NCBI GenBank assembly: GCA_963737065.1
Contig: CAVTRC010000001.1
Span: 1,408,001-1,472,000 of the forward strand
DNA length: 64,000 bases
DNA from: Candidatus Eremiobacteria bacterium
Lineage (GTDB): Bacteria > Vulcanimicrobiota > Vulcanimicrobiia > Vulcanimicrobiales > Vulcanimicrobiaceae
Direction of reading: 5' to 3'
Both the position numbers and the translations under genes were made by a program. How positions within the stretch are numbered: the first letter of the stretch is position 1; each line of letters opens with the position of its first letter. A model generated the notes under the pieces. It was not told where the DNA came from. It did no database searches and saw only the letters and a list, made by a program, of their open reading frames with translations. This document shows positions 19,356 through 21,975 of this stretch, piece by piece.

Positions 19356-20870
19356 GTGGAGATGGCGCGCGCGGCTCGATCGACCGGCGACCTGTGGGTC
19401 ATGATCGCGACGATCGTCGGGTCGAGCATGGCCTTCATCGACGGCATGGTCGTCACGCTTGCGCTGCCGTCGATTCAACGTCAATTTCATGCCGGAGCCG
19501 GCGACGTCGCCTGGATCGTCGAGCTGTATACGCTTGTCATTGGGTCGCTCATGCTCATCGGCGGCGCCCTTGCCGACATCTACGGGCGGAAACGGATCTT
19601 CACGTTCGGCGTGATTCTGTTTGCAATCGGCTCGGTTGGCTGCGGGTTTGCCTGGTCGATTCCATCGATGCTGGTCGCACGCGTGGTTCAAGGCTGCGGT
19701 GGAATGTTACTCATTCCGTCGAGCCTCGCAGTCCTCGGCGCGCATTTCACCGGCACGGCACGCGATCGCGCGATCGCGGCGTGGTCTGCATTCGGCGCGC
19801 TGACGTCGACGCTAGGCCCGATGGTCGGCGGCGCGCTTATCGATTCGCTGGGATGGCGCTCGGTTTTTTGGATCAACATTCCGCTTGCCGCACTGGTGCT
19901 GTATGCAACGAGCGTTCACATCGACGAAAGCCGTGATGACCGCGCGTCGCGCCACCTGGATTTCACCGGCTCAGCGTTGCTCACCGTTTCGCTCGGCGCA
20001 ATCACGTACGCGCTTATTCGCGGTAGTTCCATCGGCTGGCATTCGGTCTCGACGACCGGTACGGCGATTGCAGGCGTTGCCCTGATGGCAATCTTTGTCG
20101 CACGTGACACGCGCGTAACAAACCCACTCGTTTCGCCTGCAGTGTTCGCGTCGCGAACCTTCGGTACGGTCAACGTTGCAACGCTGCTGCTGTACGGCGC
20201 ACTCGGCGCGAACTTCTACGTGTTGCCGTTCGTGATGATTCAGGGTCATGGATATAACGCGCTGCAAACCGCCTTAGCGACGCTTCCATTGGGAATCTGT
20301 ATGGTTGCGCTCGCGCGTGTTGGCACGGCGCTCGGGCGCACGATCGGTATGCGCACCGTGCTTGCGATCGGCCCAATCGTCATTGCAGGCGGCTTTGTCG
20401 TACTCGCGCTTTTAGAACGGAATTCGACGTATGTAACGACGTTTTTCCCCGGCATTGTCATGATCGGTATTGGACTCGGACTAACTGTCGCGCCCCTGAC
20501 ATCGACGGTTATTGATTCCGTCGCGCCCGAACACGTCGGCATCGCGTCGGGCATCAATAACGCGGTTTCGCGCGTCGCCGGTTTACTTGCCGTCGCGGCA
20601 CTTACGATCGTTCTTGCGAAGTTGTACAACGCCTCGCTGGACCACTCGCTCGATGCCATGCGCGCATCGCCGCGGATACGAGCGGCGGCGAATGCACAAC
20701 GCGACCGCCTCGGCGGCGCTCGCTTCAAAAACGCGCAACTGCAGCTCGCATCAACGCGAGCGTTCGAGCAGGGATTTCAAGGCGTCGCACTCGGCTGCGC
20801 GACGCTGACGCTCCTCGCAGCAGTCGCCAACGCGCTCGGCATTCGGAACGACGAGTTGCAGGCCCGTTAA
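19356..20870 (+). CDS. MFS transporter, DHA2 (14-TM) family
   Basis: FIDGMVVTLALPSI, GALADIYGRKR, WRSVFWINIP. Confidence 0.92.
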   Translation: MEMARAARSTGDLWVMIATIVGSSMAFIDGMVVTLALPSIQRQFHAGAGDVAWIVELYTLVIGSLMLIGGALADIYGRKRIFTFGVILFAIGSVGCGFAWSIPSMLVARVVQGCGGMLLIPSSLAVLGAHFTGTARDRAIAAWSAFGALTSTLGPMVGGALIDSLGWRSVFWINIPLAALVLYATSVHIDESRDDRASRHLDFTGSALLTVSLGAITYALIRGSSIGWHSVSTTGTAIAGVALMAIFVARDTRVTNPLVSPAVFASRTFGTVNVATLLLYGALGANFYVLPFVMIQGHGYNALQTALATLPLGICMVALARVGTALGRTIGMRTVLAIGPIVIAGGFVVLALLERNSTYVTTFFPGIVMIGIGLGLTVAPLTSTVIDSVAPEHVGIASGINNAVSRVAGLLAVAALTIVLAKLYNASLDHSLDAMRASPRIRAAANAQRDRLGGARFKNAQLQLASTRAFEQGFQGVALGCATLTLLAAVANALGIRNDELQAR

Positions 20871-20933
20871 AGGGCTGCGGCATACGAGGGTTTCTGCAAA
20901 TCGCGTGCGATATTGCGCTGTGGAGGGAAACGC

Positions 20934-21707
20934 TTGAAGAAACGGCTACGCACTTGGAAGACTCTGATCGAACAAGCCGTCGAGACGATGCCGGTAGAAT
21001 TCACATTGGCCGATATCGTGGTGCGGAAAACCGCGTTCGAGAAGCACTATCCCGAGAATCGTTTTATCGAAGCGAAGATTCGGCAAAGTCTACAAGTGTT
21101 GCGCGATCAAGGCGTAATCCGGTTTCTCGGACAAGGGCGCTATGAGCGACTCAATATGAAGCCGATATTCAGTCCATTGATTGACCAAACGATTGCAACG
21201 ACATACTCAAATAAGACCCAGTTTGCTCGTGTTGTCTTGGAGACGTGGGCAGAGCTAAACCTCTACTGCTTACATTGCGTGAACGATTCGTTGACCCGCC
21301 TTCCGCATAATACGCCTGTAGCGGACTTTGAATGTCAGTGCTGTGAGGCGCAATATCAACTTAAGGCAAAAGATGGCCGATTCGGCTCGAAGCTCAGTGG
21401 AGCAGCATATGCGCCAACGCTGAAGGCGAGCAAAGAACGTTCCATGCCCGAACACGTCCTGGTCGAGTACGACCGTCGCTTCTCGACGGTCGTTTTCGTC
21501 GACGCCCTTCCCGGATCCGCGATAACGCCGGAACGCGTTGTTGCAAGAGCCCGCCTTTCCGCAAGCGCGCGTCGTGCCGGATGGCAGGGGTGTACGATTC
21601 GCATCGACGGCATTGAACGCGTCGGGATCGTTAGGCCTTCAGGTTTGCCGAGAGAAGCGGTGCGGGCGGCATGGGCGCAGAGGATGAAAATGCGAGCCGC
21701 GGACTAA
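20934..21707 (+). CDS. DpnI/Dam-replacing-family restriction endonuclease with permuted domain order
   Basis: N-terminal winged helix (YPENRFIEAKIRQSLQVLRD...GRY), then the DpnI catalytic domain (CxxC, PVADFxCxxC, QLK, ARRAGWQGC). TTG at 20934 with GGAGG upstream. Confidence 0.88.
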   Translation: MKKRLRTWKTLIEQAVETMPVEFTLADIVVRKTAFEKHYPENRFIEAKIRQSLQVLRDQGVIRFLGQGRYERLNMKPIFSPLIDQTIATTYSNKTQFARVVLETWAELNLYCLHCVNDSLTRLPHNTPVADFECQCCEAQYQLKAKDGRFGSKLSGAAYAPTLKASKERSMPEHVLVEYDRRFSTVVFVDALPGSAITPERVVARARLSASARRAGWQGCTIRIDGIERVGIVRPSGLPREAVRAAWAQRMKMRAAD

Positions 21708-21971
21708 GATCTTGCAAGATTCTATGTTGGCGGCGTTCCGTTCAAAAACGAGTTGGATGATACGCTGCGTTGTTCGAATGTAGTGAAACCTTAGCAATTC
21801 GTAGGCGGCACTTACCATGCAATCATGCGTGCGGCAACAAACCTCGCCGACCTCTTCGTCGGGATAATAGAGGAATGCCCGCTTGATATGCTGGCCTTCA
21901 GCAGGGCATTGAGGATTGAGGCAAGGCCCGCAGCCGCCGTCATCGGACAGCGAAAACCGATACGTCTTCAC
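21639..21971 (-). CDS. hypothetical Cys-rich protein
   Basis: GTG start 4 nt after the glyA stop; fills the gap between glyA and the DpnI-like gene. No recognisable family. Confidence 0.35.
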   Translation of the reverse strand: MKTYRFSLSDDGGCGPCLNPQCPAEGQHIKRAFLYYPDEEVGEVCCRTHDCMVSAAYELLRFHYIRTTQRIIQLVFERNAANIESCKILVRGSHFHPLRPCRPHRFSRQT

Positions 21972-21975
21972 GCGA

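Follow-up and report, generated by a model that had tools for sequence, protein, structure and literature searches.

The gene at positions 20934..21707 (+) of the stretch analysed here, a 64,000-nucleotide window from a Candidatus Eremiobacteria genome, raises the question of what a DpnI-like protein does when its two domains stand in the opposite order to those of DpnI. DpnI, a workhorse restriction enzyme that cuts DNA solely where adenine is methylated, is structurally the model case of adenine methylation being read twice, once by each domain. Eremiobacterota, the phylum that carries the gene, is little studied and largely uncultured.

The open frame spans positions 20913–21707 on the plus strand and corresponds to a 264-aa ORF; the protein database entry (P0001) starts at the TTG codon at 20934 and has 257 aa. 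A Shine-Dalgarno-like GGAGGG motif (20922..20927, +), read from the sequence, lies 7 nt before this TTG and supports the start at 20934, the same as that of P0001. The coding sequence of the 257-aa protein, supported by the ORF and by the Pfam and PADLOC matches, runs from 20934 to 21707 with the stop codon included. Residues are numbered here as in P0001 unless ORF numbering (P0001 + 7) is indicated. Between positions 20700 and 22100, no Rfam match and no promoter-like or terminator-like site was found around the gene. The frame is intact, and comparison with orthologues gave pN values of 0.22–0.30 against pS values of 0.72–0.80, the latter saturated, which indicates that the gene is under purifying selection.

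Pfam analysis placed the winged-helix profile DpnI_C (PF17726) at ORF residues 13–78 (E = 1.3e-19; score 70.6 bits, cut-off 23) and the catalytic profile DpnI (PF06044) at ORF residues 90–240 (E = 1.4e-37; score 129.5 bits, cut-off 26.7). The winged helix thus comes first, which departs from the canonical order, in which the catalytic domain is N-terminal and the winged helix C-terminal. A phmmer search against the PDB returned a crossed alignment with DpnI (4esj), in which query residues 94–238 matched chain residues 12–155 and query residues 13–80 matched chain residues 189–257, and PADLOC labelled the protein mREase_II (E = 3.5e-43). In an AF2 model built from 43 homologues (pLDDT 93.6, pTM 0.88), residues 79–255 superposed on residues 1–180 of DpnI (4kyw_A) with a Z score of 24.1 and an rmsd of 1.9 Å over 176 aligned residues, and residues 6–75 superposed on winged helices with Z scores up to 8.9; the Foldseek match of the catalytic-domain fold to DpnI had an E value of 1.9e-16. 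These domain and DpnI matches are far beyond chance. The N-terminal winged helix, presumed to be the m6A-GATC reader, covers residues 6–73 (20949..21152, +; Pfam DpnI_C, DpnI alignment, and model), and the C-terminal zinc-bearing PD-(D/E)XK catalytic domain covers residues 79–248 (21168..21677, +; Pfam DpnI, model, and conservation). Both domains of R.DpnI from Streptococcus pneumoniae (4esj, 4kyw) are therefore matched by profile and by fold, at about 30% identity for the catalytic domain. The Pfam profiles, the crossed phmmer alignment, our own domain HMMs, and the superposition of the predicted structure agree with one another and confirm the claim of the original prediction that the gene encodes a DpnI-family protein with both domains in reverse order as intact units.

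An N-terminal winged helix followed by a C-terminal PD-QxK nuclease is also the layout of the modification-dependent enzyme EcoKMrr, as described in the available part of the review PMC12707154. However, DpnI and DpnI_C were the two profiles to pass their cut-offs in a Pfam scan at E ≤ 1; the one further match, ATR1_N, stayed below threshold, the Mrr_cat profile (PF04471) was absent, and the catalytic domain here carries the DpnI zinc site. The resemblance to EcoKMrr is therefore a convergent layout rather than family membership.

To define how the two domains are joined, we derived an HMM of each domain from the 120 close homologues and scanned with both the 150 best of the 1224 family representatives (50% clustering). 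The canonical order of catalytic domain and winged helix was found in 108 of these 150, and the swapped order in 16, of which 7 were full length; the others had a catalytic domain alone (20), a catalytic domain with two successive winged helices (3), or split catalytic matches with a winged helix (3). Canonical-order proteins (n = 108) had a median of 0 residues before position 1 of the catalytic model, a median of 2 residues beyond the winged helix, and a linker of 12–17 residues (interquartile 12–16) from the catalytic domain to the winged helix. In the window protein, the same HMMs defined a junction of only five residues, N-M-K-P-I (21153..21167, +), linking the end that corresponds to the C-terminus of canonical DpnI with the end that corresponds to its N-terminus. 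The eight swapped representatives longer than 230 aa showed a similar linker (five with 5 residues, the others with 4, 6, and 2), and the six with whole ends had a new N-terminal tail of 4–9 residues and a new C-terminal tail of 6–16 residues. The junction is thus a clean head-to-tail circular permutation, with the former termini fused nearly without a spacer and the former linker opened, which is the pattern expected if tandem copies of a gene had been fused and then trimmed. The most likely route would be a single origin in which a canonical Q-type gene was duplicated in tandem, the copies fused, and the outer halves were lost. No intermediate of this route was seen, and a search for longer fused forms (451–2000 aa) found none, which is weak evidence.

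The swapped architecture is not a one-off. A 90%-identity protein collection contained 315 matches, and the 120 that were listed all had both domains, with 54–100% identity over 84–97% of the query; a Pfam scan of 30 of the 119 listed non-self matches found the winged helix first in all 30. Within the phylum, the swapped form was present in 56 of the 301 genomes sampled, a count that includes the unpublished genome G212. It occurred in 26 of 59 genomes of genus g4 and in one of the four other genomes of the host's own genus in the sample. The name 'Candidatus Eremiobacteraeota' appeared on one of nine clusters. No relative was found in phage records or in IMG/VR viral contigs. Matches in the plasmid collection were confined to the canonical order: gonococcal Drg, carried by a 2.17-Mb record that is classed as a plasmid, and winged-helix-only matches in Lactiplantibacillus. 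Pfam and PADLOC label proteins of this kind, so the architecture is recognised by domain databases; however, our literature search on DpnI, Dam-replacing proteins, PF17726/PF06044, and Eremiobacterota found no description of the winged-helix-first order and no assay of such a protein.

Phylogenetic analysis of the catalytic domain used a quick maximum-likelihood method and yielded an unrooted tree of 124 rows, 27 of the 151 rows having been excluded for covering fewer than 140 of 170 columns. All swapped forms, together with four catalytic-only fragments, fell on one side of a branch with an SH-aLRT value of 99. The next enclosing set, of 26 rows (SH-aLRT 95), added 13 canonical Q-type rows and one catalytic-only Q-type row. 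The swapped form therefore appears to be one clade, and after its origin it would have been inherited, with repeated loss, within one class of Eremiobacterota.

Alignment of the catalytic domain to DpnI by phmmer showed that the E-L-K of DpnI corresponds to Q-L-K here, as the original prediction had read from the protein. The DpnI residues E25, D53, and K66 are represented by E103, D131 (codon 21324–21326, +), and K144 (21363–21365, +), and E64 is replaced by Q142 (21357–21359, +). E103, D131, Q142, and K144 are invariant in all 120 close homologues, and so are the cysteines C112, C115, C134, and C137, which are predicted to form the four-cysteine zinc site, lying between E25, D53, and EXK, that was placed in DpnI by PMC3424567 in its available part. 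The Q-x-K site does not, however, distinguish the swapped form. Within the set of the 150 best family representatives, those of canonical order split into 60 with E and 54 with Q at the E64 position (Q in 54/114), and the canonical groups nearest to the swapped clade on the tree are Q-type with the catalytic domain first; Q142 thus lies within the range of the DpnI family. We know of no DpnI-family enzyme with Q at this position that has been assayed.

These residues bear on whether the enzyme cuts at all. If the change from E64 to Q had killed catalysis, the protein could act as a Gm6ATC-binding sensor, as a blocker, or as a recruiter of a neighbouring nuclease. E64 is a site-1 metal ligand in DpnI according to the available part of PMC4117772, and DpnI and gonococcal Drg (translated from L030), the characterised relatives compared here, both carry E at this position. 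Moreover, in 7 of 20 other loci that we compared, a gene for an HNH protein of about 310 aa follows directly downstream and overlaps the stop codon of the swapped gene, which makes a division of labour conceivable. Loss of activity is nevertheless unlikely, since drift would be expected at an inactive site and the four catalytic residues are without exception conserved. In addition, the same Q occurs in nearly half of the canonical-order representatives, PD-QxK sites are active in vitro in MspJI and in vivo in EcoKMrr as far as the available part of PMC12707154 reports, and no partner nuclease lies near the window copy.

To evaluate sequence recognition, we took the residue roles reported in the available parts of PMC4117772 and PMC3424567, transferred positions through the alignment to DpnI (4esj), and scored conservation among the 120 close homologues. 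In the catalytic domain, the residue making the central minor-groove contact to the m6A:T pairs (DpnI Q18) is Q96, those contacting the G:C pairs (N48, R126, and R135) are N126, R205, and R214, and those forming the methyl cleft (L129, W138, and G140, with R135 in both roles) are L208, W217, and G219, each conserved in 119–120 of the 120. A further catalytic-domain contact, S17, is T95 in the window protein and varies between Thr and Ala in the clade, where it is mostly Ala. On the recognition helix of the winged helix, four of the five residues are kept (K229, R231, Q232, and Q235 as K48, R50, Q51, and Q54), and the fifth, E228, a lining residue of both methyl pockets in DpnI, is replaced by A47, an Ala in 120/120. 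The conserved specificity residues are the main basis on which we predict specificity for Gm6ATC. The protein thus shares with R.DpnI the Cys4 zinc site, the catalytic E25/D53/K66 set, the cleft, and the base contacts, and differs from it in the N-terminal position of the winged helix, in the five-residue junction at what are DpnI's termini, and in having Q for E64 and A for E228.

The host appears to offer such an enzyme a safe background. Its genome (3.08 Mb in 2 contigs, 95% complete) contained no match to D12/Dam (PF02086), N6_N4 (PF01555), or C5 (PF00145) methylases, and its two matches to N6_Mtase (PF02384, type I-like) each carry an in-frame stop. GATC occurs 25,849 times in the genome, four of them within the gene itself, with a Markov observed/expected ratio of 0.99; the motif is therefore present at the expected frequency and is not avoided.

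Across the 301 phylum genomes, we cross-tabulated the gene by hand against D12 methylases, without a statistical test since the genomes are related and not independent. Of the 56 gene-carrying genomes, a number that counts G000 and the unpublished G212, 9 had a D12 methylase, as did 102 of the 245 without the gene. Within family f1, the depletion was slight (9 of 54 with the gene against 41 of 153 without it), and outside families f1 and f3, where the gene was found in none of 72 genomes, 59 had a D12 methylase. Eremiobacterota families without the swapped gene almost always carry Dam-class methylases, and we count the co-occurrence pattern in favour of a Gm6ATC nuclease. Among the nine co-occurrences, two D12 matches were weak (E > 1e-4) and one nuclease copy (G142) was broken. 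In G024, an intact swapped copy lies 3.4 kb from a pair of Dam-family and N6_N4 methylases, which counts against a simple exclusion rule; either these methylases do not make Gm6ATC, or expression is controlled, or the nuclease has another specificity. The points that weigh against an active Gm6ATC nuclease are the two substitutions, E64 to Q142 and E228 to A47, the nine D12 co-occurrences, G024, and the slight depletion in f1.

Some of the same observations would fit an active nuclease with a different target, such as another m6A context or a hemimethylated site, or one that cuts at a distance. The Ala at the E228 position of the reader helix, the Thr or Ala at the S17 position, and the roughly six genomes in which an intact copy occurs together with a D12-class methylase, in one case next to it, could be explained in this way, and the new domain order could itself alter how the two domains cooperate. 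We regard a shifted specificity as improbable, given that every G:C-contact and methyl-cleft residue of the DpnI catalytic domain is conserved and that only one of the five winged-helix residues has changed.

In the window, the gene stands among core genes (an ATP synthase operon, upp, an MFS transporter gene, glyA, and rpiB). No DNA methyltransferase was present among the 24 ORFs scanned at 11–32 kb of the window, and neither a methylase nor a mobility gene was found within about 10 kb of the gene; its description as a stand-alone gene holds, and in this it resembles R.DpnI. The lower GC content that had been noted was also borne out, with values of 0.544 (GC3 0.593) for the gene, 0.59–0.65 (GC3 0.68–0.74) for its neighbours, and 0.605 for the genome.

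Comparison with relatives gave a picture of its history that does not fit the horizontal acquisition first proposed, if this is taken as recent. A DNA search of four genomes of the same genus, tblastn with the neighbouring genes, and inspection of the junction sequences showed that G158 and G195, two of these genomes, lack the segment 20871..21975 in the corresponding slot, and in them the MFS and glyA stop codons lie about 22–24 bp apart. In a third genome of the genus, G207, the slot is filled by a 555-bp insert with a GNAT-like frame; we considered this filler as a remnant of the swapped gene and rejected it, as it showed no similarity. The arrangement upp–swapped gene–glyA, with the MFS gene missing, is found in G244, of the same genus, and in G063, of a different one. 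The swapped protein shares 69% amino acid identity with that of G244 and 62% with that of G063, against 90% and 75% for glyA, a divergence roughly in step with that of glyA. A single old residence followed by loss is more parsimonious than three insertions at one site, requiring fewer events, and recent acquisition is therefore unsupported: the gene occupies the same upp–glyA slot in G244 and G063, and the three closer genomes are empty or otherwise filled there. Its lower GC content and patchy spread do mark it as an accessory gene.

The 268-bp spacer between the gene and glyA (21708..21975) is single-copy in the genome. A DNA search in 20 relatives found only two short matches to it, of about 30 bases, and the segment is missing from G244 and G063. 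A 110-codon ORF on the minus strand (21639–21971) is probably not a gene, having no Pfam, NCBIfam, or PADLOC match; neither a homologue nor the ORF itself was found in the protein collection.

A GC content below that of the surrounding genes, together with broken or split copies in G142, G148, G157, and G220, might suggest that the window copy is a decaying remnant without present function; among public sequencing runs, no RNA run was listed as matching, and one DNA run shared a small part of the sequence words. This is very hard to reconcile with an intact frame, a good ribosome-binding site, a pN far under pS, the retention of all functional residues, and a confidently predicted fold, and we give it little credence.

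Elsewhere in the phylum, the swapped gene sits amid other restriction-type nucleases. We examined the 20 other loci with ORFs chosen by a simple rule of length and GC3, a rule that missed 5 of the 20 nuclease genes themselves. Besides the HNH gene, recurrent neighbours encoded a protein of about 330 aa without a Pfam match (11/20 loci), a 113-aa ORF following the HNH gene (6/20), an HNH_2 protein (6/20), and, in one locus each, a GmrSD_N protein and a Cap4-nuclease protein. All of these are missing beside the window copy, and the host genome has the gene for the ~330-aa protein only as one frameshifted copy, 124 kb away. A more far-reaching and, in our view, doubtful proposal is that the swap, Q142, and A47 together altered the cross-checking between the domains, and that in many Eremiobacterota the enzyme serves as the m6A sensor of an undescribed, conserved multi-nuclease module made up of the ~330-aa protein, the swapped DpnI, the 310-aa HNH protein, and the 113-aa protein; the changed cross-checking could relax the need for a second site, make hemimethylated DNA a target, or lead to nicking.

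The reading that best accommodates these observations, to which we assign a probability of roughly 0.7, is that the gene encodes an active, Gm6ATC-dependent, stand-alone restriction nuclease of a Dam-less host. The enzyme would be a DpnI-family restriction endonuclease that depends on modification (type IIM/IV) and in which circular permutation has carried the m6A-reading winged helix from the C- to the N-terminal end. Both this helix and the catalytic domain would read fully methylated Gm6ATC, as they do in DpnI, and D131, Q142, and K144, with E103 and Mg2+, would cut within the site. The host's own ~25,800 GATC sites would be spared because its genome lacks a Dam-type methylase, and DNA from Dam-positive bacteria or from dam-carrying phages would be cleaved. 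The part of the original prediction that cast the protein as a methyl-directed nuclease against foreign DNA thus remains the best reading, and its horizontal acquisition, if understood as recent, does not fit, given the shared upp–glyA slot.

Known systems offer several points of comparison. The neisserial Drg (NmeBII-type) enzymes, described in the available part of PMC4269198 as stand-alone Gm6ATC nucleases of Dam-less hosts with GC content below that of the genome, belong to the same family and share these properties with the window gene, for which the Gm6ATC cleavage is predicted; however, Drg has the canonical order and E-L-K, and its fixed locus is that of the dam gene it replaces, whereas the swapped gene lies between upp/MFS and glyA. 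Helbrecht et al. 2024 (PMC11037411) described fusions in which the DpnI-type winged helix acts as an m6A-GATC sensor on a nuclease, as it is presumed to do here, with the architectures PD-(D/E)XK-wH (FcyTI, Psp4BI), wH-HNH, wH-GIY-YIG, as well as PLD-wH; most stand alone and show Dam-dependent toxicity. The available text of that paper and its 8 supplementary files contain no winged-helix-first fusion to a DpnI catalytic domain and no Eremiobacterota entry.

A natural permutant that keeps the reading residues is a ready test of whether the crosstalk between the two domains depends on how they are tethered, and the swapped enzyme would be a new scaffold for m6A-dependent tools. Also at stake is whether the Q-x-K members of the DpnI family, roughly one in two of the representatives compared here, are active. 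With respect to Eremiobacterota, the result suggests a barrier role for methyl-directed restriction.

Examination of 20 loci carrying swapped DpnI genes (winged helix N-terminal, catalytic domain C-terminal) in other Eremiobacterota genomes revealed recurrent neighbors. In seven loci, an HNH-domain protein of approximately 310 aa begins inside the final codons of the swapped DpnI gene (L040:6726–7972, L043:6735–7975, and L046:6726–7969, as well as L035, L038, L039, and L045), and it is followed in six of these seven by a 113-aa ORF without an assigned family. The arrangement of swapped DpnI, HNH, and 113-aa genes looks like an operon; in L045 it is interrupted by an insertion sequence (HTH_Tnp_1 plus rve).

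Another neighbor, a protein of approximately 330 aa, is encoded next to swapped DpnI at 11 of the 20 loci (L031, L035–L038, L040, L043–L046, and L050; for example, L037:6787–7791 and L040:4548–5564, both on the minus strand), often immediately upstream and on the same strand. Sequence comparison with Pfam, PADLOC, and the PDB yielded no match for it, and its language-model look-alikes, treated as a lead only, include clusters in which a minority of members carry NucS_C, EVE, ScoMcrA_N, or Mrr_cat domains; the protein may be another modification-dependent nuclease. The window's own genome, G000, has a homologue outside the window (C1:1553106–1554090), which tblastn matched as three pieces in different frames, and this copy appears frameshifted.

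Among the best 150 of the 1224 DpnI-family representatives, P0146, P0150, and P0157 (331–352 aa) showed a further architecture, with the catalytic domain followed by two tandem winged helices.

The only DNA-methylase profile matches in G000 were two type I-like N6_Mtase matches outside the window (C1:2180466–2181313 and C1:2123899–2124486), both containing in-frame stops and one spread over three frames. In G024, an intact copy of swapped DpnI is separated by 3.4 kb from a Dam-family D12 methylase and an adjacent N6_N4 methylase (L048:585–2684), a potential self-conflict if the methylase pair makes Gm6ATC.

Around the swapped DpnI gene in the window (20934–21707), two 22-nt segments that agree at 19 of 22 positions form a direct repeat, one at 20712–20733, within the 3' end of the MFS transporter gene, and the other at 21729–21750, shortly past the DpnI-like stop. 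It may be due to chance or be a trace of a rearrangement that joined the two genes. The 268-bp spacer ahead of glyA (window 21708–21975) occurs once in the genome and is missing where G244 and G063 carry the orthologous locus; across 20 relatives, only two short stretches of about 30 bases each matched it. Searches of the spacer for RNA families, promoters, and terminators gave no hits.

Swapped DpnI copies in four genomes (G142:C1:262095–262809, G148:C70:26928–27660, G157:C10:189104–189830, and G220:C89:4198–4687) are probably broken because their matches fall in two adjacent pieces, one with an internal stop; G142 also has a D12 methylase. In G207, the slot between the MFS transporter gene and glyA contains, instead of the nuclease, a minus-strand frame resembling a GNAT acetyltransferase (L023:940–1520). 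Within the genus, this slot is a minor hot spot for gene turnover.
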